Of a DNA stretch of 64,000 nt, positions 15,576 through 29,680 are shown one piece after another. Under the pieces are notes generated by a model. That model did no database searches, was not told where the DNA came from, and worked only from the letters and a program-made list of their open reading frames with translations. This DNA is from Candidatus Nanopelagicales bacterium. GTDB taxonomy: Bacteria > Actinomycetota > Actinomycetes > S36-B12 > UBA10799. The translations under genes were made by a program, and so were the position numbers. The DNA lies in NCBI GenBank assembly GCA_037045455.1, contig JBAOIN010000006.1:128116-192115 (forward strand), read 5' to 3'. The number at the start of each line of letters is the position of its first letter. Position 1 is the first letter of the stretch.

Positions 15576-16951
15576 GGTTCGGTCCCCTCAGGGACGTAGA
15601 CGATGCCCGCGGCCGAGGTGCTCAGACCCGCGGTCAGCACGTCGGTGCCGGCCTTGAGTGTCCACTGCCCGTACGGCAAAGCGGTGCGAACCACGCCATT
15701 CGCATCCGTCTTTCCCAGCTGGTAGATCTGCGCCGGCGAGCACCCGGTCGCGTCCGCGATGACAGCCGTGACACTCACGTCAGCCCTGGGGTCGCCCTCG
15801 CTGTCGAGGAACGTTGCCTGGAGCGGTTTGAGTGGCACCTTCGCCGTGACTGTTCCTCCCGGACTCGCAATCACGGCCTTGGGCCGGGAACCACCCGTGG
15901 CGGCTGGGTCGTTGAGCGTGCACTTGCCCGCCCAGACCGAGTAGCCATCGGTGAACGGCCACAGCCCGGTCACCGAGGACGTCCCGCCGGGCAGTTCCTT
16001 GCGACCCATGTTGGGCAGACCCGGGTTGAACAAGACGATGGGCTGAACAGGCGTGGGTGCGGTGAAACTGGGACCGGGGTCGTCGGTGACCTCGTAGTTG
16101 AACTGGATAGTCGCCGCCCGGTCGTAACTGAACGGCACAACCTGGATCGTGCCCTGGCTGACCGTGGCCGGTTTGGATACCGATTGCTGTCCGTCAAAAC
16201 TCACATACCCCGGCTCGTCGAGGGTGACCGTGTAGTTGCCCGTCGTATCCATGGCGAATACCGCGCAGCCGTCGGCGCCCGTGACCCGGGTCTGGCTTCC
16301 CCCCGGCCCGGTGATGTCGACCGGAACACTGTCGACACCCGTTCCAGCAGCGCCCTGCACCTTGGCCGCCACGAACCCCTTGATGGCGGCCAGGGTGCCC
16401 TTCGGCGGCGTCAGGATGGTGTTCGACTCCACGTCGCGAGTCACCGCGTGCTGCTTCCAGCTCACTTTGACGTTGACTGCCAGCGATGGGTAGGTAACGG
16501 CCGAACCACCGTCGCAAGGACTTGCTCCCGACCCTGCAGGCAGCCATTCCACAGTCCGCACCACGGTGTACTTGGTGCCGTCGAGGTTCAGTGGCTGGCC
16601 GGCCGTCTGCCCGGGCAACGGTGTGCCGTTCGTGACCTGACTGGTGGCGGCCACCGTCAAGGGCGCGCTCTTGGAGGAGCCGAACTGATTGCGCACGGTC
16701 TCGATCTCGCGGGCGGCAAGGTTTGCGGCCTGCACGCGGGACCGGTCGGTCTGGGTCACCGCCAGCGACAGTTGCAGTCCGTAGGCAAACGCGGAGGAGA
16801 CCAGGCCGAGGATCGTGAGTGCGGCCATGAGCTCGATGATGGTGAACCCCGCGTCGGACTGCCGACGGTCCCGCCGTCGGGCGCGCAGCAGCCGAATGAT
16901 CACGTCTAGTGAATCGGCGTAATGGGACTGTGCCTTAATCCTTATGGGCAT
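15572..16951 (-). CDS. Minor pilin (PilV-like) with CarboxypepD_reg-like beta-sandwich repeats
   Basis: The prepilin signal is RRQSDAG|FTIIELMAALTILGLV. Two carboxypeptidase-regulatory-like segments are present (VPVDITGPGGSQTRVTGADGCAVFAMDTTGNYTVTL; VSVTAVIADATGC...KTDANGVVRTALPYGQWTLK). The start is uncertain. The ATG at 16951 abuts a hairpin, and the GTG at 16903 is an alternative. Confidence 0.8.
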   Translation of the reverse strand: MPIRIKAQSHYADSLDVIIRLLRARRRDRRQSDAGFTIIELMAALTILGLVSSAFAYGLQLSLAVTQTDRSRVQAANLAAREIETVRNQFGSSKSAPLTVAATSQVTNGTPLPGQTAGQPLNLDGTKYTVVRTVEWLPAGSGASPCDGGSAVTYPSLAVNVKVSWKQHAVTRDVESNTILTPPKGTLAAIKGFVAAKVQGAAGTGVDSVPVDITGPGGSQTRVTGADGCAVFAMDTTGNYTVTLDEPGYVSFDGQQSVSKPATVSQGTIQVVPFSYDRAATIQFNYEVTDDPGPSFTAPTPVQPIVLFNPGLPNMGRKELPGGTSSVTGLWPFTDGYSVWAGKCTLNDPAATGGSRPKAVIASPGGTVTAKVPLKPLQATFLDSEGDPRADVSVTAVIADATGCSPAQIYQLGKTDANGVVRTALPYGQWTLKAGTDVLTAGLSTSAAGIVYVPEGTEP

Positions 16952-16955
16952 AGGG

Positions 16956-16981
16956 AAAGGCCCCGGTTTCCCGGGGCCTTT
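16956..16981 (-). terminator. Intra-operon hairpin directly after pilA (attenuator or partial terminator)
   Basis: Perfect 11-bp stem aaaggccccgg-tttc-ccggggccttt. It starts 18 nt after the reconstructed pilA stop (16999-17001) and has only a short U-run. Confidence 0.55.
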
Positions 16982-16998
16982 CAGGGTGAGGGGTCAGA

Positions 16999-17417
16999 TC
17001 ACGCGGTCGCCACGCAAGCGCCCGTCTTGAGGCCGGCGGGGCTGGAGTAGCTCCACACGGCTCCACCGTTGGCGGTCGCCTCGAGGCAGTAGTCCGTCGA
17101 TCCGTTGGCGGTGGCTGTCGATCAGCGGGGTGGTGCCGCCGCTCGTAGTTGCTGCCTGGAGAGTACTTGAAGCCGACAGCCTGCAGATCAGCGATCGCGT
17201 TGGTGTACGTACCGGTGTCGGTCAGAACCGTCTCTTCGGCCGTGGCCGCGTTGCGGAGGTCCGCCTTGACCGCAGATTCCCAGCCCTTCTTGCGCTGGTT
17301 GAGGAACACGGGAATGGCGATGGCTGCCAGGATCCCGATGATGATGATCACGACGAGGAGTTCGATGAGGGTGAAGCCCTCTTCCTCTTTCCTTGCCTGG
17401 ACGAGCCGCGTGAACAT
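16999..17417 (-). pseudogene. pilA: Major type IV pilin PilA, with two +1 frame disruptions as assembled
   Basis: The class III signal is MFTRLVQARKEEEG|FTLIELLVVIIIIGILAAIAIPVF. After ...GFKYSPGSNY the listed ORF becomes junk. Hand translation of the other frames restores SGGTTPLID, then TANGSTDYCLEATANGGAVWSYSSPAGLKTGACVATA*. This is a typical disulfide-bonded pilin C-terminus. The shifts lie near 17142-17145 and 17110-17114. The span is 419 nt (3n+2). Confidence 0.85.
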
Positions 17418-18250: not shown

Positions 18251-18335
18251 CCCAGCCTAGTGAGCGGCGCCTTACATAGTGTTTGCCTTTGTTTGTGCGC
18301 GTTTGCGCGTGTTTGTCGTACGTGCGTTCTAGTGT

Positions 18336-19444
18336 TTGGGTATGGACCTTCCCCGCGCTCTGACTCTCCTGGAATCCCCGGCCGGGGATCCGCTGGAGCT
18401 CGTCCGGGCGGCTGAGGCGGTCAAAGCCTGGGCTGATGCTCGGCAGTTGGAAGCCATTCATGACCTGTCCGAGCAGGAGCCGGCCGGGTTCGACCCCTAC
18501 GGGCAACTCGTTGATCCGGTCCCGGCCGAGGTGGCCTGCGCGCTGACCTGGACGGCATGGACCGCCAGCCGCCGGGTCGACCTGGCCCACGAACTGCACG
18601 ACGAGCTTGCCCGACGTGCTCGACGCGCTGCGGCTTGGTGAGATCGACCTGGCCAAGGCGGTTGAGATCGCCCACGGCACCTGCGAACTCCCGCCCGCCG
18701 ACCGGGTGCGAACTGGCTGATCGTGCGATCGGGTACGCCGCCAGACCCACACCCGCGCCCAGCTGAAAGCGTGGCTGGCCGGACGCATCGCCAAACTCAA
18801 CCCGGACGCCGCCGAGAAACGCCGCAAGAAAGCCAAGAAACAGCGCCGGGTCTGGGTGCAACCCGAATCCGACGGCATGGCCACCCTGGGCGCCTACCTC
18901 ACCGCCGAAGAAGCCCAAGCCTGCCTACTGTCGCTGAAGCACGGCGTCGCCAATCATGAAGGCAGCGTGGACGCCGCCCGCGCCGACCTGCTCGTCCAGA
19001 CGACTGACCGGCCTGGCACCCGCCGACCCGATCCCTGTGCAGGTGATCATCACCCCGGGCGGACCCGGAACTGGCCGGCCACGGCCCCCTAAGCCCGCTG
19101 CACGCCGCTCAGCTGTGCGACGGGGCACCCCGCATCAACCTCGAGGCGCCCGCCCCGACGCTGTCCTACGCCCCCACCGTCGGCACTCGTGCGACTACGT
19201 CAAAGCCCGCGACCGGCACTGCCGCTTCCACGGCTGCCGACGCGCCGCCATGCACTGCGACCTCGACCACACCATCGAATACCCTCACGGCCCGACCTGC
19301 GCCTGCAACCTCCACTGTTTGTGCCGGTATCACCACCGGCTCAAAACCCACACCGCCTGGCAAGTGCACCGCAACCCCGACGGATCACTGACCTGGACCA
19401 GCCCCCGCGGCCACCAATACAGAAGCGAACTCGAAGACCCGTAG
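18336..19444 (+). pseudogene. DUF222 / HNH endonuclease (13E12-repeat-type), with multiple frame disruptions
   Basis: The DUF222-like N-terminus is in ORF 18336-18641. Recognisable pieces occur in changing frames: LPDVLDALRLGEIDLAKAVEIA; QLKAWLAGRIAKLNPDAAEKRRKKAKKQRRVWVQPESDGMATLGAYLTAEEAQA; ELAGHGPLSPLHAAQL. The HNH C-terminus is in ORF 18956-19444 (ARDRHCRFHGCRRAAMHCDLDHTIEYPHGPTCACNLHCLCRYHHRLKTH). There are at least 5 frame changes, and not all run in the same direction. Confidence 0.8.
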
Positions 19445-19447
19445 TCG

Positions 19448-20119
19448 CTACAGGTACTTTGTGATGACCATTGCCGCGAGAAGTGCCAACCAGATCACGG
19501 TGCCCGCGATATCCAACCCGTAGGCCAGTGGCTTGCGCGTGATCCTTTGTAGGCGTGCGCCCAGATGCCCGTCGGCCAGATTGACGCGAGTCAAGGAAGT
19601 GAACACCAGGGTCGTTGTGACGGTGATGAGCAGGCACCACGGGCAGAGTGCCCCGATCACGAAGTAGGCCTGGTAGAACAGCCAGTACGCGAATAGGAAC
19701 CCGATCGAGTAGAACGTCTGCGCGATCAGCATGAACCACCGCGGGAAGCGCACTCCCCCGAGCGCAGCCACGGCGACCGTGATCACGATCGGCTCCGTGA
19801 TCAGCCCGAGGAAAGCGTTGGGAAATCCCAGTAAGTTGGCCTGCCAGGTGGAACCGACGGTCGTGCACGAGATCTTCGAGCTGATGTCGCAGGAAAGGAT
19901 GACGTCGGGATTCTCAGCGATCTTGATGGCGTCGATGGACAGCACGAGCGATGCGACCAGGCCCAGCAATGAGGACACCAGCATCTCGATGTAGGCGCCA
20001 GTGTGCCGACGGCCGGTCTCCGGCACCTCGTCGAACTCGTCGAGCAGCTCGTCTGCGGTCTGCGAAGTCACGTGACCGAGTATCCCTGGATGACGGGAGG
20101 GACGCGCAAGCGGGCGCAT
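19448..20119 (-). CDS. Vitamin K epoxide reductase (VKOR) family protein, a DsbB-type disulfide oxidoreductase
   Basis: 223 aa and multi-TM. It has the loop cysteines ILSCDISSKISCTTV and the active-site CPWC (GALCPWCLLITV). Confidence 0.85.
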   Translation of the reverse strand: MRPLARPSRHPGILGHVTSQTADELLDEFDEVPETGRRHTGAYIEMLVSSLLGLVASLVLSIDAIKIAENPDVILSCDISSKISCTTVGSTWQANLLGFPNAFLGLITEPIVITVAVAALGGVRFPRWFMLIAQTFYSIGFLFAYWLFYQAYFVIGALCPWCLLITVTTTLVFTSLTRVNLADGHLGARLQRITRKPLAYGLDIAGTVIWLALLAAMVITKYL

Positions 20120-21409: not shown

Positions 21410-22683
21410 GAGGGTTCCTCCTGGCCGAGGGGGACATCTCGCAGAAAGAACAGCCCGGCGACACTGGCCACACACGCTGCAGCAGAAAGCGCGAATGGTC
21501 CTCTGCCGGCAGCGCCCATGAGTACCAGCCAGGAGGCCAGCATGAGCCATGCGCCCGCAATGTTGCGGTGCAGTGCCCAGATGACTGCGGCTGGCAGCAG
21601 CACCACCACCGGCGAGATCAGGTAATAGGAGCCGAACCAGATGTCGGTCGCGACCCTCAGCAACACGATGATCACGGGCACCAGCAGGCATGCCGTCGCC
21701 CTGATCGCCGCGTGCCGGCGAAGCAGTGGGCGTGCCCACAATAGCGTCACCGCCGTGGCCACAGCGCCCACCAGACCCGCCTGCAGCAGGCGCAATGACC
21801 AGGGGAATGGAGAACCCGCTCCCACTAGCAGGCTCCAGGCACTGTCTGCGCGCACGGTCCAGTGGTAGCCGGCCATATGGAACGATCCTGAAACAACAAA
21901 GGGCAGCCACAGCATCGCCGACACGGCCACCGCTGCGCCGACCGCGCCTGCCACTCGCCGCAGGTCCGGCGCGAGCAGCAAGGCGACGACGCCGACGATG
22001 CCCCACGGCTCGAGCCCGGTTGCCAGTCCGATTGCCGCACCGGCGAGCACGGGCCGGCCGGCAGCACTGAGACCGCCCGCCAGCACCCACAGCAAGAGCA
22101 CCGGGATCTGCCACCAGTGCCCGGCCATCAGGTACTCCTCGTCGGCGCCGATCAGACCGAGAACGGCGACCGTCAGCCACGGGGCAGCAAGCACGAGGGT
22201 GCTGCTGTCGGGAAGGCGACGGATGAGTGACGCAGCCACGGAACCGCCTACGAGCAATGGGACCGAAGCCACGAGAGTCATGAGGACAGCGGCACCTGCT
22301 GCTCCAGGCAGCACTGCCAGCAGGCGATGGAGCAGGCCGTCGCCGATGATCTGTGCGGGCCCGGCTTGGTTGAACGGATCGGCGTACGCGCCCCCGAGAT
22401 CGCCGCGCAGTACCGACTCCCCGAGGCCGCTGAATTGAGCGATGTCCGGAATCCACCCATATAGCGCCTGTATCCGTGATCCGGCACCGGCAGTCAGGTC
22501 CCACAGCCGCCCCGCGGTAGCCACGGAGAAGGCCAGGGCGAGCGCGATCCACCCATGCCGTGCCAGAACGCTGACCCAATGCGGCCATGTGGCCGGGCGC
22601 AGCCACAGCCCCGCATCGAGCAACGCTGGCCGTGAGGCGGTCGCAACACCACCCATAGGAGGCGCATCGTCACCCATGCCCAC
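21406..22683 (-). CDS. Polytopic membrane protein, GT-C-like (possible second glycosyltransferase)
   Basis: 425 aa with about 10 or more hydrophobic helices. Its first loop is IPDIAQFSGLGESVLRGDLGGAYADPFNQAGPAQI. It starts 3 nt after the pilC stop. The family assignment is tentative. Confidence 0.55.
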   Translation of the reverse strand: MGMGDDAPPMGGVATASRPALLDAGLWLRPATWPHWVSVLARHGWIALALAFSVATAGRLWDLTAGAGSRIQALYGWIPDIAQFSGLGESVLRGDLGGAYADPFNQAGPAQIIGDGLLHRLLAVLPGAAGAAVLMTLVASVPLLVGGSVAASLIRRLPDSSTLVLAAPWLTVAVLGLIGADEEYLMAGHWWQIPVLLLWVLAGGLSAAGRPVLAGAAIGLATGLEPWGIVGVVALLLAPDLRRVAGAVGAAVAVSAMLWLPFVVSGSFHMAGYHWTVRADSAWSLLVGAGSPFPWSLRLLQAGLVGAVATAVTLLWARPLLRRHAAIRATACLLVPVIIVLLRVATDIWFGSYYLISPVVVLLPAAVIWALHRNIAGAWLMLASWLVLMGAAGRGPFALSAAACVASVAGLFFLRDVPLGQEEPS

Positions 22684-22686
22684 CCC

Positions 22687-23907
22687 TTACTCGATCAGGT
22701 CGAACACCTTGAAGATCGGCATGTAGAGGGCAATGATCATTGCGCCAACGATCGCACCCACCACAGCGATCATGATCGGTTCGATCAGCGATGTGAGGGC
22801 CTCGGTCGTGGCCTCCACCTCTGAGTCGTAGAAGTCCGAGATCTTGTGGAGCATGGCATCCAGGGACCCGGTGTCCTCGCCGACAGCCATCATCTGCACA
22901 ACCATCGGCGGGAAGACCGGGTGTTCGGCCAAGGGACCGGCCAACGACTCCCCCCGTCGTACGGAGTTCTCCACGTCGTCGATCGCGCGGGCAAGAACCA
23001 CGTTGCCGGTGGTGTCCGAGACGATGTCCAGCGACTGCAGGATGGGGACACCTGCGTGAATCATGGTGCCGAGGTTGCGGGAGAAGCGGGAGATCGCCAC
23101 CTTCTGGAAGAGCTTGCCGAAGATCGGAGCCTTCAACTTGAATGGATCCACGACGTTGCGCACCTTGGGATGGTTCTTGTAACGGCGCCACACGAAGAAG
23201 CCGATCACCGCCAGCAGCAGCAAGAACGGCAGCGCAGTCTTCAGCAGGTTGGAGAGTGCGACCAGAACCCGGGTGGGCAGCGGCAACTCACCGCCTAGGC
23301 CGGCGAACATGTCGGCGAAGACCGGGACGATAAAGACCAGCATCGCGGTCATGGACAGGATGGCGAACGAGAACACCACGACCGGGTACGTCATCGCGGA
23401 CTTGATCTTTGCGCGCAATTTGACTTCCGCCTCGAAGTTCTCCGCGAGTTGCAGCAGCACCTGATCCAGGAAACCGCCGGTCTCACCGGCCCGGACCATG
23501 TTGATCATGATGGGCGGGAACACACGCTCGTGCTGGGCAAAGGCCTGGGACAGCGAGGAACCCTGCTCTACTGCCAGGCGGACCTCGGAGTAGACCTCGG
23601 CCAGTTTCTCGTTGTCGGTCTGCTCGGCAAGGATGGACAGCGCTCGCAGCAGCGAAAGCCCGGAGTTGATCATGGTGGCGAACTGCCGTGCCGAGATGGC
23701 GATGTCCTTGAGTTTCACCCGGCCACCGAAGCCCGGGATGTGCAACTCCTTGTTCAGCCCGGCGTTGGCTTTGGCGATCGAGATGGGCGCGTAGCCCATG
23801 CCTTTCAGCTTGCTGGCCACGGCCGCTGGCGACTGCGCGTCAATCCGGCCCTTGAGGACCTTGCCCCCCCGGTCGCGGACTTGATAGTCGAACGTCTCCA
23901 GACTCAC
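22687..23907 (-). CDS. pilC: Type IV pilus platform protein PilC (GspF family)
   Basis: 406 aa with a duplicated T2SS-F domain (ISARQFATMINSGLSLLRAL...; ISRFSRNLGTMIHAGVPILQSL...). Confidence 0.95.
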   Translation of the reverse strand: MSLETFDYQVRDRGGKVLKGRIDAQSPAAVASKLKGMGYAPISIAKANAGLNKELHIPGFGGRVKLKDIAISARQFATMINSGLSLLRALSILAEQTDNEKLAEVYSEVRLAVEQGSSLSQAFAQHERVFPPIMINMVRAGETGGFLDQVLLQLAENFEAEVKLRAKIKSAMTYPVVVFSFAILSMTAMLVFIVPVFADMFAGLGGELPLPTRVLVALSNLLKTALPFLLLLAVIGFFVWRRYKNHPKVRNVVDPFKLKAPIFGKLFQKVAISRFSRNLGTMIHAGVPILQSLDIVSDTTGNVVLARAIDDVENSVRRGESLAGPLAEHPVFPPMVVQMMAVGEDTGSLDAMLHKISDFYDSEVEATTEALTSLIEPIMIAVVGAIVGAMIIALYMPIFKVFDLIE

Positions 23908-25031
23908 GCGATCCTCCCGGTCATCCGGTTGAAGTCCTCAACGTGGTGGCATTTCTCCGCGCCCTGCTCGTAGCTGATGCGACGCGACCGGACGAGTTCC
24001 GCCAAGTGCTGGTCGAGGGTCTGCATGCCGTACTGCGCGCCGGCCTGCAGGGATGAGTAGATCTGGTGGGTCTTGCCCTCGCGAATCAGGTTGCGGATGG
24101 CCGGGGTGGCGACCATGACCTCGACCGCAGCCACCCGGCCTTTGCCGTCCGCGGTCTTGCACAGCGTCTGGCAGACCACACCCTGCAGGGTGCCGGCGAG
24201 CTGCTGGCGGATCTGCTGCTGCTGATGCGGCGGGAAGACATCGATGATGCGGTCGACCGTTTGGGCGGCGTCCTGAGTGTGCAGGGTCGCGAACACCAGG
24301 TGGCCGGTCTCCGCGGCAGTCAGGGCGACCTGGATGGTCTCGAGGTCACGCATCTCCCCGACCAGGATGATGTCCGGGTCCTGCCGCAGGACGTGCTTGA
24401 GCGCCTCGGCGAAGGAGCGGGTGTCGGTGCCCACCTCCCGCTGGTTGACCAGGCAGTTGCGGTGCCGATGCAGGAATTCGATCGGGTCTTCCACGGTCAT
24501 GATGTGGTCGTGGCGGGTGGAGTTCGCGATGTCGATCAGCGACGCCAGCGTCGTGCTCTTGCCAGAGCCGGTGGGTCCGGTCACCAGCACGAACCCGCGC
24601 GGCAGCGCGGAGAACGACGAGACGATTGGGGGGATGCCCAGCGATTCCAGGCTCTTGATCTCAAACGGAATGACGCGGAACGCTGCGCCGACAGCTTCCC
24701 GCTGCTGGTACATATTCACGCGGAATCGGGCCCGGCCCGGCAGCGAGTACGAGAAGTCGAGCTCCAGCCGCTCTTCGAACATCTCCCGCTGCTGCTGGGT
24801 GATGATCGCGTAGAGGATGCGTTTGAGGGAGGCGCTGTCCAGAACGGGCGCGCCCGGCAACGGCCGCAGGCTGCCCGCGATCCGCACGGTAGGCGGCGCG
24901 CCGGCCGTGACGTGCAGGTCACTGGCACCCGCGGAAAGCATCAACTCCAGGCACCGAACCAGGCTGACATCGCTGGCCCGGACGGCCTGCTCGGTGCCGG
25001 GGCGAGCGGCTGCGGGTGTCTGCACGGACAT
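23904..25031 (-). CDS. pilT: Type IV pilus retraction ATPase PilT
   Basis: 375 aa with Walker A GPTGSGKSTT, VGEMRDLETIQVALTAAETGHLVFATLHT, and the AIRNLIREGK motif. Confidence 0.95.
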   Translation of the reverse strand: MSVQTPAAARPGTEQAVRASDVSLVRCLELMLSAGASDLHVTAGAPPTVRIAGSLRPLPGAPVLDSASLKRILYAIITQQQREMFEERLELDFSYSLPGRARFRVNMYQQREAVGAAFRVIPFEIKSLESLGIPPIVSSFSALPRGFVLVTGPTGSGKSTTLASLIDIANSTRHDHIMTVEDPIEFLHRHRNCLVNQREVGTDTRSFAEALKHVLRQDPDIILVGEMRDLETIQVALTAAETGHLVFATLHTQDAAQTVDRIIDVFPPHQQQQIRQQLAGTLQGVVCQTLCKTADGKGRVAAVEVMVATPAIRNLIREGKTHQIYSSLQAGAQYGMQTLDQHLAELVRSRRISYEQGAEKCHHVEDFNRMTGRIA

Positions 25032-25177
25032 GTTGACGACTTCGGCAGTTCGTGGGAAGTGCTTGAACCAGCGCTCACCCGAGCGGGGGCGCTGACGCTT
25101 TCACGCAATGAGATTGAACAACGACCCAGGTGAGAGCGCTGGACGGTCGTCTATCGCTCGCAACAGCGCGCAACTCC

Positions 25178-26842
25178 TCAGACCACGACGCGCAGTACTT
25201 CGTCCAGGCTCGTGACCCCGGCCAGCACCTTGGCCAGCCCGTCCTGCTTGAGGGTCTGCATGCCTTCCTCCCGCCCGGCGGTCGCAATGGCCGCAGAGGG
25301 GGCCCGCTCCACGGCCAGCCGCTCGATCCGCTCGGTGATCGGCAGCACCTCATGCAGGGCGACCCGGCCTTTGTAGCCGGTCCGCGAACACACCGAGCAG
25401 CCGACCGGACGGTAGATCTTCGGGATCTCGTGACCGTCCTCGATCGGCAGGCCAGCTGCTCGCAAAGCCTCACGCGACGGCTGGTAGGTCTGCTTGCACT
25501 TAGGGCACAACCGTCGCGCGAGACGTTGGGCCAGGACGCAGTCCAGAGACGAGCCCACCAGGAACGGCTCAATGCCCATCTCGATCAACCGGGTCACGGC
25601 ACTCGGCGCATCGTTGGTGTGCAAGGTGGACAGCACCAGGTGTCCGGTGAGCGCGGACTCCACCGCGATCTGGGCGGTCTCGTGGTCGCGGATCTCACCG
25701 ATCAGCACGATGTCGGGGTCGGCACGCAGGATCGACCGCAGCGCCGCTGCGAACGTCAGACCAGCCTTGGCGTGGGTCTGGATCTGGTTCACCCCTGCCA
25801 AACGGTATTCGACCGGGTCCTCGACAGTGATGATGTTCACCTCGGGTCGGTTGAGGATGTTCACCGTCGCGTACAGCGTCGTGGACTTTCCCGAACCGGT
25901 CGGCCCAACGACCAGGATCATGCCGTAGGGCTTACCGAAACTCGCCGAGAAGCGGTCGTAGTTCACCTGCCGGAACCCGAGGTCGGCCAGGTCCAGCATC
26001 GCAGTGGAGTTGTCCAGGATCCGCATGACGATCTTTTCGCCCCACACCGTCGGCAACGTCGCCACCCGCAGATCGACCTTCTGGCCGTTGCTACTCACGC
26101 TCAGCCGACCGTCCTGCGGCACCCGGCGTTCGGCAATGTTCATGTCGGCCATGATCTTCAAACGGCTGATCACCCCGGACTGGATGGACTTCGGCGAGCG
26201 CATCACCTCGTGCAGCACGCCGTCGATCCGGAACCGCACGCGAACGTCGTGCTCAGTCGGCTCGAGATGGATGTCGGAAGCCCGGTCCTGGATGCCCTGG
26301 GTGATCAGCAGGTTCACGAACTTGACGATCGGGGCGTCCTCGACGACCTCCTTGATGCTGGACAAGTCGTCTTCGTCGGAATCCGGCTCTATCGCGGTCG
26401 TGAGCTCGTCGAGTTCGCCGTCCGCGCGGTAGTGCCGGTCCAGCGCTGCCTGCACGTCGGTGCGCGTCGCCACGACCGGGATGACCGTCATGCCACTGGC
26501 CGAACGAATGTCGTCGATGGCGAAGACGTTGGCCGGGTCGCTCATGGCAACCACCAGCCGGCCGTTCTCGAAGGCGATCGGGATGGCACTGTGGCGCCGG
26601 CACACCGCGCCGGGGACCTTGGTCAGGGCGGCCCCGTCCAAGGTCGCTTCGGCCAGGTCGACGAACCGCATGCCGATCTGGGTGGCCAGAGCCTGCACGA
26701 CCTGCGCCTCGGTGAGCATGCCGAGATCTATCAGCACCCGGCCCAGAGAATGCCCGATGTTGCGCTGTTCGAACAGGGCCTTCTCCAACTGATCGGACGT
26801 GATGAGGCCCTGGCCGATCAAGATCTCGCCCAGTTGCTTCAT
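25178..26842 (-). CDS. pilB: Type IV pilus assembly ATPase PilB (GspE family)
   Basis: 554 aa with an N-terminal GSPII_E_N domain (LGEILIGQGLITSDQLEKALFEQ), Walker A GPTGSGKSTT, and the tetracysteine motif CPKC...CSVC. Confidence 0.95.
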   Translation of the reverse strand: MKQLGEILIGQGLITSDQLEKALFEQRNIGHSLGRVLIDLGMLTEAQVVQALATQIGMRFVDLAEATLDGAALTKVPGAVCRRHSAIPIAFENGRLVVAMSDPANVFAIDDIRSASGMTVIPVVATRTDVQAALDRHYRADGELDELTTAIEPDSDEDDLSSIKEVVEDAPIVKFVNLLITQGIQDRASDIHLEPTEHDVRVRFRIDGVLHEVMRSPKSIQSGVISRLKIMADMNIAERRVPQDGRLSVSSNGQKVDLRVATLPTVWGEKIVMRILDNSTAMLDLADLGFRQVNYDRFSASFGKPYGMILVVGPTGSGKSTTLYATVNILNRPEVNIITVEDPVEYRLAGVNQIQTHAKAGLTFAAALRSILRADPDIVLIGEIRDHETAQIAVESALTGHLVLSTLHTNDAPSAVTRLIEMGIEPFLVGSSLDCVLAQRLARRLCPKCKQTYQPSREALRAAGLPIEDGHEIPKIYRPVGCSVCSRTGYKGRVALHEVLPITERIERLAVERAPSAAIATAGREEGMQTLKQDGLAKVLAGVTSLDEVLRVVV

Positions 26843-27723
26843 ACGCCTCGCACTCCTCGCAGGATGGCGGTCAGGAGGTCCTGGTCGTCATCGCGCGCAG
26901 GAGTCTCCGGAGCGGCCTCACTGACTTCTTCGGCAGCAGTGCCGCCGGGGATGACCGCCAAATGCGGTGCTTGCGGCCGCTTTGTGGGCGCCGGTGCGTC
27001 CTCGATCGCCGAGAGCATGGCCAGCCGGTGTTCCACGGCGCCGGACCCGGCGATCACGGGGATGGCACAATCGGCATCCACCAGATCCGCCAGATCCACG
27101 ACCGTGCCGACCGTGCCATGGCCGCTCGCCTCGATGAGTTCGGCGACGGTACGCCGGCCGTCGATCAGCGAATGCAACCCTCGAAGGTGGGCCGGCACGG
27201 CACCCGGGTGCGCCGCCATGACCGTGCTCGATCCGCCGAGCAGGTCGGCGGCCGGACGCCAGCGTTTCAGCAGCGCAGTCACATCGGCGGCCATCTCGGC
27301 CAAGGGAAAAACGACGCCCACGTCGTCGGGCACGACGTCGGCCTCGTCAGCGGTGAACGTGCCCTTGCGCCAGTGGCTCAAACCCGCCAGAGCGCTCACC
27401 AGGTGCAGGCGGGTCAGCGGCCGAAGGTAATCGGGGTCGATGGCGTCGGCCTGCACCAGCGCCTTGACCACACCACCGTCCTGGGCGCTGCGCAGCGCCT
27501 CCGCCAGACTCGTGGTTCCGACCGCCCCTTCCAGCACCAGCCGACGCGCCAGGCACTGCCGGGAACCGTCAGCGCTGGCGCTCACCACCGCACCGTCCCG
27601 CAGCGCCACGAAGGCGGCCTGTTCCCCCTGTAACCGAACCAGCCACTGCCCTGGCTTGCGCCCCACCAGGCTCAGGACCTCCTGAACCCGGAAGGCGTGC
27701 ACGGAACCAGCGAGCAGGGGCAT
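26839..27723 (-). CDS. DUF4388 / PATAN-like domain protein
   Basis: 294 aa. The N-terminus GSVHAFRVQEVLSLVGRKPGQWLVRLQGEQAAFVALRDGAVVSA matches the DUF4388 pattern as I remember it (reporter residues F/L, a K-G stretch, then a G..v.A strand). Its stop overlaps the pilB ATG (ATGA). Confidence 0.6.
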   Translation of the reverse strand: MPLLAGSVHAFRVQEVLSLVGRKPGQWLVRLQGEQAAFVALRDGAVVSASADGSRQCLARRLVLEGAVGTTSLAEALRSAQDGGVVKALVQADAIDPDYLRPLTRLHLVSALAGLSHWRKGTFTADEADVVPDDVGVVFPLAEMAADVTALLKRWRPAADLLGGSSTVMAAHPGAVPAHLRGLHSLIDGRRTVAELIEASGHGTVGTVVDLADLVDADCAIPVIAGSGAVEHRLAMLSAIEDAPAPTKRPQAPHLAVIPGGTAAEEVSEAAPETPARDDDQDLLTAILRGVRGV

Positions 27724-27726
27724 GGC

Positions 27727-28711
27727 TTACTCCGGCGGCGGGAGTTCGAACGCGGGGCCGACGGGCGGCGGCAGCTCGATTGCGGGTCCGGACGGCGGCG
27801 CGAGATCAGCTAGATCGGCCAGGTCCAGGTCGGGCTCGGACGGGCCGGTGAACTGCGGCCCCTCTTCCTCGTCGATTCCGAAACCGGCCGGGACAGCATC
27901 GGCGGGTGGTGCCAGGTCAAACGCGGTGTCGAAGGCATCGGAGGCCGGCACGGGCGGTGCCAAGTCAAACGCCGTGTCGAAGGCATCGGAGGCCGCAACG
28001 GGCGGTGCCCAGGCCTCACCGAACGCGGCGTGCATCCCCGGTGTCCAAGGCATCGGAGGCCGCAACGGGCGGTGCCAGGTCGAACTCCTCGACCGCTGGC
28101 TGCGCCACTGACCAGTCCTGGAAGTCGGTCACCTGCTGCTCGTCCAGAGCAGGGCCGGCCGGTTCGTCCACGGTCTGCTCGTCGGCCCAGCGAATCTCCG
28201 GTTCCGGCTGCTCCTCGGCGGCCTCCTGCACCACATCGGCAGCCCACCATTGGTTCTCGTCGCTGCGCGGTTCCTGCTCCTGGGGCTCTTCGGCGGATTC
28301 CGAGGCTGGCAACTCCGGCCGCCGACCCATCGGGAAAGCGTCGGCGATCTCCCGCGCCTCGTAGCGCAGCAGACCGATCGGCACGCCCGGAGCACCCACC
28401 ATCACCAGCACCCACGGATCCTTGTCAATCACGCAGATCCCGCTTTCGCCCCCCTCCAGGAACAGCTGCGAGGTGCCGTCCTGGCCCAGCGACTTCGCCA
28501 TGCCGCGCACCTGCACCATCATGCGCACGGCTCCGGCAGCCACAGCGTCGTCGTCCACGGCACCCGCGCCCTCCGACGCGATGGCAAAGCCGTCTTCGGA
28601 CATCAAGCCCAGCCATTGCACGTCGGGGTGGTCGCGCAACGCCTCGCTCAGCAGGCGGCCCACGATCTCCGATGCGCCCGGTTGGGGCACCTCGATGTCA
28701 CCCATACTCAT
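27727..28711 (-). pseudogene. Roadblock/LC7 (MglB-like) domain protein with an acidic, Pro-rich repeat tail; one +1 frame disruption as assembled
   Basis: ORF 28016-28711 has a Roadblock-like N-terminal domain (VGRLLSEALRDHPDVQWLGLMSEDGFAIASEG...LFLEGGESGICVIDKDPWVLVMVG) followed by an acidic tail. ORF 27727-28065 continues the same repeat (APPVAASDAFDTAFDL) in the next frame. The junction is at the CCCC run 28036-28039. The span is 985 nt (3n+1). Confidence 0.65.
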
Positions 28712-28867
28712 CCTTTCGGCAGGTCCTGGCGAGAAGTATTGCGGATCGGACCCCTTCGGCGGGGATCCGACGGGCCCGGTTGGCCGAATGCACCGAATTC
28801 GTCGTGCCGGAGGCCGGTCACCCCAGCAACGTTCACGGTCTTCGGCCCCTTATGCGGCGGAGACAGC

Positions 28868-29680
28868 TCAGTCCTGGGTGGCCGGCAGCGCGGCCCGCAT
28901 CGCCGCTGTGGGGGCCGGCCGGCCGGTCATCAGCTCGACCTGTCGCTCGGCCTGGGCCAGCAGCATTTCCAGGCCCGAGACGATCCGACCGCCGCCGGCA
29001 GCCCACGCCTGCGCGAGCACGGTGGGCCACGGCGAGTACACGACATCGAGCAGCCACGCCGGTTGCGTCGGCAGGCTTTGGGCCAGGACATCGGCGACCC
29101 CGGACGGCACAGTCGTGATCACAAGCTCGGTGGCCAGCCACTGCGGGCTGTCGAAAGGGTGCACCCGCAGGGCCACGCCCAGTCGGTCGGCGGTGTCACG
29201 TGCCGGTGCCGCGCGGAGGCTGTCGCGGGCGAGCAGATGCACCTCACCGACTCCCAGGGCATGCAACGCCGCCACCGCCGAACGGGCCGTGGCACCCGCG
29301 CCAGCCACCGTGGCCGGGAATCCCGGTTCGGCGGCGAACCCGGCGCGCAGCAGGGCCATACGCAGTCCGTCGACATCGGTGTTGTGCGCCTGCCTGGCGG
29401 GCAGCAGCAGCGTGTTCGCGCTGGTAGTGGCGTGCGCTGTCCAGGAGATCTCACCGGCCAGATCCAGCACAGCCTCCTTCAGCGGCATGGTCAAGGACAG
29501 TCCCGCCCAGCTGGCGTCCAGACCTGCGAGGAAATCGGGCAACTGCTCGACGGTGACCTCGAGGCCCGCGTACGTCCAGTCCAGGCCGAGCGCCCTGTAG
29601 GCAGCCCGGTGCAGGGCCGGGGACAGACTGTGCGAGATCGGGGAACCGACGACGGCTGCGTTGCGGGTCAGGTCGGTCAC
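28868..29680 (-). CDS. aroE: Shikimate dehydrogenase
   Basis: 270 aa: AAVVGSPISHSLSPALHRAAYRALGLDW...; NTDVDG. Confidence 0.92.
   Translation of the reverse strand: MTDLTRNAAVVGSPISHSLSPALHRAAYRALGLDWTYAGLEVTVEQLPDFLAGLDASWAGLSLTMPLKEAVLDLAGEISWTAHATTSANTLLLPARQAHNTDVDGLRMALLRAGFAAEPGFPATVAGAGATARSAVAALHALGVGEVHLLARDSLRAAPARDTADRLGVALRVHPFDSPQWLATELVITTVPSGVADVLAQSLPTQPAWLLDVVYSPWPTVLAQAWAAGGGRIVSGLEMLLAQAERQVELMTGRPAPTAAMRAALPATQD

Follow-up and report, generated by a model that had tools for sequence, protein, structure and literature searches.

How a type IV pilus motor might be regulated by a Roadblock protein and a PATAN protein that are encoded without a small GTPase is the question raised by a stretch of 64,000 nucleotides from Candidatus Nanopelagicales bacterium (contig JBAOIN010000006.1, positions 128,116 to 192,115; hereafter the window, with positions counted from its first letter). 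In this window, genes for a Roadblock/LC7 protein and a stand-alone PATAN (DUF4388) protein lie directly upstream of pilB, the gene for the pilus assembly ATPase. An earlier note, made from the sequence alone, had seen here an undescribed, GTPase-less variant of pilus motor control. Only part of this view stands: no description was found in the literature searched, but the GTPase-less arrangement is the derived state of one clade, and 32 related loci carry a GTPase gene. With a confidence that falls a little short of even, and arguing from sequence and analogy, we propose that the two proteins form a PilB-directed cytoplasmic adaptor or regulator pair, which would act on the pilus extension motor without the ancestral GTPase.

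Both domain assignments of the earlier note proved correct. The Roadblock open reading frame (ORF) matched the Pfam family PF03259 (Robl_LC7) with an E-value of 9.8e-9 and 35.3 bits (cut-off 23). The AlphaFold model of the intact protein has the core topology alpha-beta-beta-alpha-beta-beta-beta-alpha (H11-25, E29-36, E41-45, H52-72, E81-83, E90-95, E98-104 and H110-123), and Foldseek matched this model to MglB, LAMTOR2 and Asgard Roadblock proteins with a probability of 1.00 and TM-scores of 0.62-0.72 (0.62-0.69 for MglB specifically). Fold and family profile together place the protein in the Roadblock/LC7 (MglB-like) superfamily. The PATAN ORF matched PF14332 (DUF4388; E-value 1.3e-8, 35.4 bits, cut-off 25) and nothing else above threshold, and the PATAN domain was matched in all of the 35 homologues examined (best E-value 1.7e-35). 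A receiver (REC, Response_reg) domain was detected neither in the window protein nor in any of 35 homologues, with E-values up to 1 allowed, in agreement with the claim that no CheY-like receiver is fused to PATAN. The stop codon of the PATAN gene overlaps the start codon of pilB as ATGA at 26842..26839, also as had been claimed. NCBIfam contains no model for either protein.

To place this pair in an evolutionary context, we gathered 46 loci via the PATAN protein (context look-ups and one PATAN-alignment scan of 185,579 species genomes), in which six gene families were placed by tblastn and ORF calling. The order in Actinomycetes and Nitriliruptoria is aroE-Roadblock-PATAN-small GTPase-pilB-pilT-pilC, with genes that overlap or nearly abut. 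In all loci from actinobacterial metagenome-assembled genomes (MAGs) that were long enough, pilB was located downstream of PATAN, and the Roadblock gene was present in all of them except one (L040), so that the association of the pair with pilB, on which the earlier note depended, extends to the relatives recovered. A GTPase gene lies between PATAN and pilB in 32 loci, which belong to Acidothermaceae, Sporichthyaceae, Mycobacteriales, Frankiaceae, Nitriliruptoraceae and unclassified Actinomycetes MAGs. Its Ras-like product of 190-200 aa matches PF03029 (~1e-20) as well as Ras and Arf, and contains the P-loop GPFSAGKT and the switch II FGTPGQ. Sequence identity is 87-100% among the best 120 of ~8000 homologues of this GTPase; one locus among the homologues listed (L057) again has the order aroE-Roadblock-PATAN-GTPase...pilB.

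The spacing in GTPase-bearing loci is Roadblock-(1..6 nt)-PATAN-(-1..+1)-GTPase, followed by GTPase-(-4)-pilB in the basal lineages (Nitriliruptoraceae and two Actinomycetes MAGs). In the window's clade it is PATAN-(-4)-pilB, and start/stop spacings there range from -4 to +6 nt. GTPase-less loci comprise the window, L001/L016 and L010-L019, in which the PATAN stop overlaps the pilB start; MAGs of this clade are labelled Candidatus Nanopelagicales. Searching with three GTPases from related loci (tblastn), we found no small GTPase in the 64-kb window, which upholds the statement of the earlier note that an MglA-like GTPase is missing. Neither in the window nor in eight related loci of ~20 kb is a GTPase encoded together with the Roadblock protein, as it would be in an MglA/MglB module.

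A neighbour-joining tree of PilB, with a non-actinobacterial locus as root, placed the GTPase-less loci in a single clade; GTPase-bearing lineages branched both basal to it (Nitriliruptoraceae, L046/L047) and as its sister group. A single loss of the GTPase, in the lineage of the window, is therefore the simplest explanation. As judged from these loci, the ancestral unit of Actinomycetes and Nitriliruptoria was Roadblock-PATAN-(small GTPase)-pilB-pilT-pilC, and the GTPase-less state is derived and not the design of the system. An independent loss of both the Roadblock gene and the GTPase was observed in a Mycobacteriales MAG with the order aroE-PATAN-pilB (L040:9995-11032). Thus, of the three members of the triad, PATAN has the most persistent tie to pilB.

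GTPase loss coincided, on the same branch, with a much greater change in the Roadblock and PATAN proteins than in the products of the neighbouring genes. Mean amino acid identities within the GTPase-less clade, within the GTPase-bearing set and between the two were 88, 73 and 28% for the Roadblock core and 69, 48 and 30% for PATAN, compared with 91, 75 and 71% for PilB, 86, 75 and 69% for PilT, 84, 67 and 65% for PilC and 68, 45 and 44% for AroE. Since that loss, both proteins have been more conserved than a housekeeping enzyme. Strong divergence at the time of GTPase loss was thus followed by tight constraint, which is the pattern left by a new function rather than by decay. Profile comparisons gave a similar separation of the two Roadblock types, which could still be aligned with each other (hhalign probability 98.3%, 28% identity). 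Among PDB sequences, the window-type profile reached an E-value of only 0.006 with Myxococcus xanthus MglB, and the GTPase-linked profile matched a Thorarchaeota Roadblock protein (7f8m, 1.5e-29) and Prometheoarchaeum Roadblock3 (9jue, 5.6e-23), and also CvnB5 (E-value 1e-15) and MfpD/Rv3364c (E-value 5e-15). The GTPase-linked Roadblock proteins are thus CvnB/Asgard-like rather than MglB-like.

The Roadblock protein of the GTPase-less clade also gained an acidic tail that is rich in short motifs. The intact tail of 214 aa consists of 18% Ala, 17% Pro and 25% Asp plus Glu and has a net charge of -49. It is disordered in the AlphaFold model (pLDDT <50) apart from the last ~30 residues (pLDDT 75-84), which correspond to residues 310-339 of the intact protein P0161 (window 27730-27816). 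According to the model, this proline-rich C-terminal motif may fold back on the core or take a defined conformation. Across 37 homologues the tail is mostly unalignable and hypervariable, yet it contains invariant islands: a Trp at about residue 154, EIRWADEP, repeated FDLAPP/FEMP units and the C-terminal DLxDLAPPxGPxIDLPPPxGPAFELPPPE, which is kept in the 37 homologues and in all loci of the GTPase-less clade. All intact GTPase-adjacent Roadblock proteins end with a Trp followed by 0-2 residues, whereas all GTPase-less ones end with ...GPAFELPPPE. Because of these islands, and because the C-terminus is different beside a GTPase, the tail gives the impression of a series of short binding motifs that became fixed once the GTPase had been lost.

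These data bear directly on the possibility that the system is still a G-protein switch, whose cognate GTPase has moved elsewhere in the genome and for which the Roadblock protein still serves as GTPase-activating protein (GAP). The GTPase is so well conserved (87-100% in the best 120 homologues) that, had it been retained as a partner, the surface of the Roadblock protein should have stayed constant. However, the Roadblock core is only 28% identical to the GTPase-adjacent ones, although Nitriliruptoraceae Roadblock proteins are still 54-62% identical to a GTPase-bearing reference of the Actinomycetes type (L002), and the C-terminal Trp common to all GTPase-linked Roadblock proteins has been replaced. 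A relocated GTPase is therefore unlikely in our view, even though MglA and MglB homologues are often unlinked (59 MglA and 328 MglB homologues have been counted as orphans; PMC4316618) and our search was confined to 64 kb of the genome in question and to the surrounding ~20 kb at eight related loci.

If the pair acts on PilB without a GTPase, as we propose, the PATAN protein would make the contact. Its AlphaFold model (pLDDT 82, pTM 0.73) shows, from N- to C-terminus, a beta-sheet interrupted by a helical insertion (57-115), a winged helix (168-223), a further helix, a disordered linker (248-282) and a short helix. The C-terminal motif LLxxLLxGVRG[VL] is kept in both the GTPase-less and the GTPase-bearing clades. 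When the family profile was compared with the PDB, the N-terminal domains of MshE (E-value 2e-4), PilF and PilB were matched. In a profile-profile alignment (hhalign), the insertion matched residues 2-64 of PilB from the same locus with a probability of 96%, an E-value of 1e-9 and a score of 49; 60 column shuffles scored 19.8 or less and the reversed profile 8.3. By this comparison, the insertion is homologous to the N-terminal MshEN-type four-helix module of PilB. Some DUF4388 proteins had already been noted by Han et al. to be annotated with a GspE_N domain, and MglA/MglB homologues to occur often near PATAN genes; the homology between PATAN and PilB is thus an extension of known hints.

The MshEN_N module consists of two 24-residue motifs with a 5-residue spacer (PMC5013675). 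In the PATAN insertion, the first Arg of the cyclic di-GMP (c-di-GMP) motif is replaced by Cys, Asp or Ala and the Gly mostly by Ala, and the spacer between the motifs is shortened in the window's clade. Binding of c-di-GMP by the insertion was considered, but a claim to this effect was rejected, as an Arg and, for the most part, a Gly that are central to the MshEN motif (PMC5013675) are missing. We therefore claim homology of the module and not binding of the ligand. In PilB itself, residues 1-64 (window 26842-26650) form two well-formed MshEN 24-residue motifs, with Gln3 and Ser32 at the positions of the MshE Arg residues that stack on c-di-GMP.

The middle part of the PATAN protein suggests another possible role. 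Its winged helix matched MarR_2 in 19 of 35 homologues (best E-value 2e-6). Assignment of the protein to CvnC/DUF742 was rejected, since only 3 of 35 homologues matched that family with E-values of 0.07 or worse, far below the Pfam cut-off; the window protein itself gave an E-value of 0.12 and 12.7 bits (cut-off 27). The middle domain is better described as MarR-like than as DUF742. It is conceivable that PATAN is mainly a transcription factor of the pil operon; the Roadblock protein would then serve it as a sensor or partner, and the two would not touch the motor. The MarR_2 matches and the winged-helix unit in the model speak for such a function, and DNA binding was once predicted for PatA-type proteins, as Han et al. 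mention. The same authors, however, oppose DNA binding by the cyanobacterial PATAN regulators, which bind to PilB1 and PilC at the membrane. In addition, winged helices double as protein-protein modules, and the coupling of the gene to pilB, and in relatives to the GTPase gene, better fits a stoichiometric protein complex. We regard the transcription factor as decidedly unlikely.

A further question is whether the Roadblock gene is functional at all. As sequenced, the long-tailed protein is divided between two ORFs in different frames: the Roadblock ORF stops at 28016, and the tail continues in the +1 frame as ORF 28065..27727. The TAA of the latter, and no other Roadblock stop, lies 3 nt ahead of the PATAN ATG, so the 3-nt distance between the two genes given in the earlier note applies to this second ORF and not to the Roadblock ORF proper. 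Similarly, the long acidic, Pro-rich tail that it described belongs to one protein in close relatives and to two ORFs in the window. These relatives are the metagenome contigs L007 and L009, which encode a PATAN protein 100% identical to that of the window, have ~98% DNA identity over the Roadblock region, and read through the frameshift site to give a single Roadblock protein of 339 aa (P0161, a cluster with 19 member sequences). Relative to these contigs, the window shows a net difference of 7 nt where a 48-nt tandem-repeat array begins. Other frameshifts were detected in the window in alaS (two, at ~32724 and ~31532), in ruvX (one, at ~31165) and in the major pilin gene (at least one, 16935-17417); they point to an error-prone and probably long-read assembly. 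As near-identical contigs are intact and alaS, ruvX and the pilin gene are frameshifted in the same window, the Roadblock frameshift is most likely an assembly indel and not biology. The frameshifts leave alaS split over three frames and ruvX over two, and the Cys-Cys C-terminus of the major pilin (...DYCLEATANGGAVWSYSSPAGLKTGACVATA) in another frame. The true start of the Roadblock protein is probably the ATG at 28705 (MGDIEV...), which agrees with the homologues and is preceded by an AAGGA motif at 5 nt.

The 48-nt repeat encodes FDLAPPVxASDAFDTA units, whose copy number differs between the window and strains ~98% identical to it (window 27903-28009 compared with L007:120-1195 and L009:1-552). 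It also differs between L007 and L009. Therefore, the length of the Roadblock tail varies within the species.

It could be argued that the two genes became useless after GTPase loss and that the frameshift marks the onset of pseudogenisation, as the Roadblock ORF is interrupted in the window and the Mycobacteriales MAG L040 lacks both the Roadblock gene and the GTPase. Such a decaying relic is very improbable: within the clade, identity reaches 88% for the Roadblock core but only 68% for AroE, the 57 Roadblock clusters of this type are nearly all full length (290-368 aa), and the allele is intact in near-identical strains. The two frameshifts in the essential alaS of the same window likewise point to assembly errors and not to pseudogenisation.

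Taken as a PilB-directed pair, the two proteins could work as follows. They would be made together with PilB and act on the extension motor, where PATAN would contact PilB and/or PilC in the manner of cyanobacterial PATAN domains, possibly through its PilB-like helical insertion. The link between PATAN and PilB is based on the placement of the PATAN gene in the pilB operon, the homology of this insertion to PilB, the adjacency of PATAN and pilB in L040 and the binding of PilB1 by the PATAN domain of PixE. A Roadblock dimer would bind the PATAN protein. In the relatives, the complex would be toggled by the GTPase, whose GAP-type partner would be the Roadblock protein. In the GTPase-less clade, the pair would work without a GTPase, and the motifs of the Roadblock tail might supply the docking or input formerly given by it. 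A more far-reaching formulation, which we consider possible but doubtful, is that the triad of Actinomycetota is an ancestral PilB controller, in which PATAN is the physical adaptor that joins a Ras-like switch to the pilus motor and docks via its PilB-like module, and that the clade of the window has swapped the GTPase for the tail motifs (EIRWADEP, FDLAPP/FEMP and LPPPxGPAFELPPPE).

Several observations weigh against the proposal of a PilB-directed pair. The MarR-like middle domain makes a DNA-binding role possible, and the resemblance of the insertion to MshEN says nothing firm about a ligand. When the whole PATAN model was compared with the PDB by Foldseek, the best E-value was 0.48 and nothing was significant; therefore, no structural template is available for the proposed contacts of PATAN. 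We know of no solved PATAN structure. The Roadblock gene is frameshifted in this very window, and all relatives are uncultured MAGs. Finally, the absence of the GTPase applies to the 64-kb window and ~20 kb around eight other loci of the clade, to which the search was confined.

The pilus genes of the window are of the type IVa kind, with an assembly ATPase bearing MshEN/GspE_N, a retraction ATPase and PilC in the motor operon, and pilins, a prepilin peptidase and PilMNO nearby. Coordinates of the relevant features are listed in Table 1. All genes from aroE to pilC are on the minus strand. A gap of 156 nt separates aroE from the downstream Roadblock gene, pilB and pilT are 146 nt apart, and the start of pilC overlaps the stop of pilT. 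Downstream of pilC are genes for pilins, prepilin peptidase, pilM, pilN and pilO, followed by aroC; therefore, the entire type IVa pilus cluster is embedded in an aro region. On the other side the order is alaS-ruvX-mltG-aroE, which, like the GT87 glycosyltransferase and the labels of the closest MAGs (Candidatus Nanopelagicales, Actinomycetota), assigns the window to an actinobacterium. The interval between aroE and aroC also contains unrelated genes for a GT87 glycosyltransferase, VKOR and a histidine phosphatase. Among them, an HNH-endonuclease/DUF222-like remnant (...RFHGCRRAAMHCDLDHTIEYPHGPTCACNLHCLCRYHHRLKTH..., window ~18300-19450), apparently broken over several frames, separates two halves of the pilus cluster. 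A scan of 22400-29000 found no sigma-70-like promoters, and its terminator search found intragenic hairpins only (6 compared with a shuffled mean of 2.8, sd 1.6) and none between genes; both results are uninformative for a high-GC actinobacterium (the G+C content of the genome is 66%).

Table 1. Positions of the pilus motor operon genes, their domains and motifs, and the upstream aroE gene in the window.
Feature	Position	Strand	Evidence or remark
aroE (shikimate dehydrogenase)	28868..29680	-	Pfam; upstream neighbour in nearly all related loci
Roadblock/LC7 gene, 5' part (231-aa ORF)	28016..28711	-	Pfam Robl_LC7
Roadblock domain	~28400-28654	-	
Roadblock tail island NQWW	28244-28255	-	
Roadblock tail island EIRWADE	28178-28198	-	
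Frameshift site within Roadblock gene	28018..28046	-	Alignment with L007 and L009
Roadblock gene, 3' part	27727..28065	-	+1 frame; acidic Ala/Pro-rich tail with FDLAPP-type repeats
48-nt tandem repeat of Roadblock tail	27903-28009	-	
Conserved C-terminal motif of Roadblock tail, DLADLAPPSGPAIELPPPVGPAFELPPPE	27730-27816	-	
Stand-alone PATAN (DUF4388) gene (294 aa)	26839..27723	-	Pfam
PATAN domain	27256-27708	-	MshEN_N-like helical insertion inside, at 27376-27558
MarR-like winged helix of PATAN protein	27055-27222	-	Followed by disordered linker
Conserved C-terminal helix of PATAN protein, DLLTAILRGVRGV	26848-26877	-	
pilB, type IV pilus assembly ATPase (554 aa)	25178..26842	-	Pfam T2SSE, E 2.3e-139; N-terminal MshEN, E 4e-23
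pilT-type retraction ATPase (375 aa)	23904..25031	-	Pfam T2SSE, E 5.5e-48
pilC, platform protein (406 aa)	22687..23907	-	Pfam T2SSF, E 5e-68

Related loci contain additional genes next to the triad. In loci of the Acidothermaceae type (L022:11985-13445; also L020, L021, L026, L027 and L038), a membrane protein of 486 aa that belongs to the O-antigen ligase family (Wzy_C, E-value 5e-16) is encoded between the GTPase gene and pilB, and its stop overlaps the pilB start; this protein is a candidate pilin glycosylase. In a soil contig (L057:7043-10074), toxin-antitoxin genes (HepT-like; PhdYeFM/PIN) and a gene for a 506-aa protein lie between the GTPase gene and pilB. Thus, insertions are tolerated downstream of the triad and not within it. 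Mycobacteriales-type loci have a small ORF of 83-107 aa after the GTPase gene (L002:11698-12021; L005:4774-5025; L039:11910-12062), with the motif ...FRDGT.A.LDP... and no Pfam match. That the pair has nothing to do with pili, and lies next to pilB by a historical accident of the aro neighbourhood, is hardly probable: the pil cluster does sit between aroE and aroC beside GT87, VKOR and histidine phosphatase genes, but the tight adjacency to pilB is a feature of more than 40 loci from two classes, and insertions occur downstream of the triad with none inside it.

If the far-reaching formulation given above is true, the clade of the window would represent a GTPase-free rewiring of an MglA/MglB-type circuit. 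How Ras-like GTPases of the MglA type reach the pilus motor is still being established one system at a time, with SgmX of Myxococcus as an example, and binding of PATAN to PilB and PilC has so far been demonstrated in cyanobacteria only. With Roadblock, PATAN, PilB and, in relatives, the GTPase encoded in one co-translated unit, one would predict that the GTPase acts on PATAN and PATAN in turn on PilB, in a direct chain. The GTPase-less clade may then be viewed as a natural deletion experiment, which reveals what parts of the Roadblock and PATAN proteins could change after GTPase loss and what new motifs were subsequently fixed. The wider Roadblock-PATAN-GTPase-pilB operon is arguably even more interesting, as it would connect Ras-like switches to the pilus motor in a compact form that lends itself to testing. 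Regulation of type IV pili would also be extended to uncultured actinobacteria with small genomes, in which pili may serve DNA uptake or attachment; names of the MAGs in the GTPase-less clade point to activated-sludge sources.

Among known systems, the PatA-type (PATAN-REC) regulators PixE, PixG and LsiR of Synechocystis share the N-terminal PATAN/DUF4388 domain with the window protein, and their functional target, the extension motor of the type IV pilus, is the target implied here by the operon structure. The precedent invoked by the earlier note for PATAN proteins that bind PilB and PilC does exist in the literature: the PATAN domain of PixE alone binds PilB1 and suffices to reverse phototaxis, and PatA-type regulators also bind the N-terminal domain of PilC (bioRxiv 10.1101/2021.06.11.447907). 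However, the window protein lacks the REC domain and hence a phosphorylation input, and has instead a MarR-like winged helix, a disordered linker and a conserved C-terminal helix. PatA-type genes are found in chemotaxis-like operons, whereas PATAN here is part of the pilB operon and is partnered by a Roadblock protein, plus a GTPase in the relatives.

The MglA/MglB systems of Myxococcus xanthus and Thermus thermophilus share the MglB-type Roadblock fold and the link to type IV pili, and the relatives of the window also pair the Roadblock protein with a Ras-like GTPase that has a TxxGQ-type switch II. MglC, a Roadblock paralogue that is not a GAP, provides a precedent for an adaptor (PMC4719450, PMC7949163). 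Unlike these systems, the window has no GTPase, its Roadblock protein is only weakly similar to MglB in sequence, the genes lie within the pilB operon, and in relatives PATAN is located between the Roadblock and GTPase genes. No homologues of RomR, RomX or SgmX were seen. In Bdellovibrio bacteriovorus, half of the GTPase/Roadblock pair has also been lost, but as a mirror image: MglA is retained without MglB and has a role related to type IV pili (Milner et al. 2014, PMC3983030), while the clade of the window has kept the Roadblock protein and lost the GTPase.

The conservons (CvnA-CvnB-CvnC-CvnD; Mfp of mycobacteria) resemble the relatives of the window in that the order Roadblock-middle protein-GTPase equals CvnB-CvnC-CvnD, the Roadblock profile matches CvnB5 and MfpD/Rv3364c, and the GTPase matches PF03029 and is annotated as 'ATP/GTP-binding protein', a match and annotation that are also typical of CvnD. 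The locus is nevertheless not a conservon: no CvnA kinase-like gene is present and aroE lies upstream in both the window and its relatives; the middle protein is PATAN plus a winged helix and not DUF742; the output is a pilus ATPase; and the window has no GTPase.

A genomic association of PATAN genes with mglA/mglB homologues was reportedly recognized by Makarova et al. in 2006. MglB and PATAN genes have been described as neighbours, with PATAN near some MglA genes as well, and so has a small clade of actinobacterial MglB homologues that are all orphans and lack flanking conservon genes (Wuichet and Sogaard-Andersen 2014, PMC4316618). This orphan clade may be the Roadblock family of the window. 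The three adjacent gene families are the same as here, but those reports were neighbourhood observations without a link to pilB. In the literature searched, we found no description of the aroE-Roadblock-PATAN-GTPase-pilB operon or of its GTPase-less derivative in Actinomycetota. Having no REC domain and no GTPase in the window, the locus is a member of neither of the systems to which it comes closest, and by its sequence and by analogy it would work most like a blend of the cyanobacterial PATAN motor regulators and the MglA/MglB-type modules.

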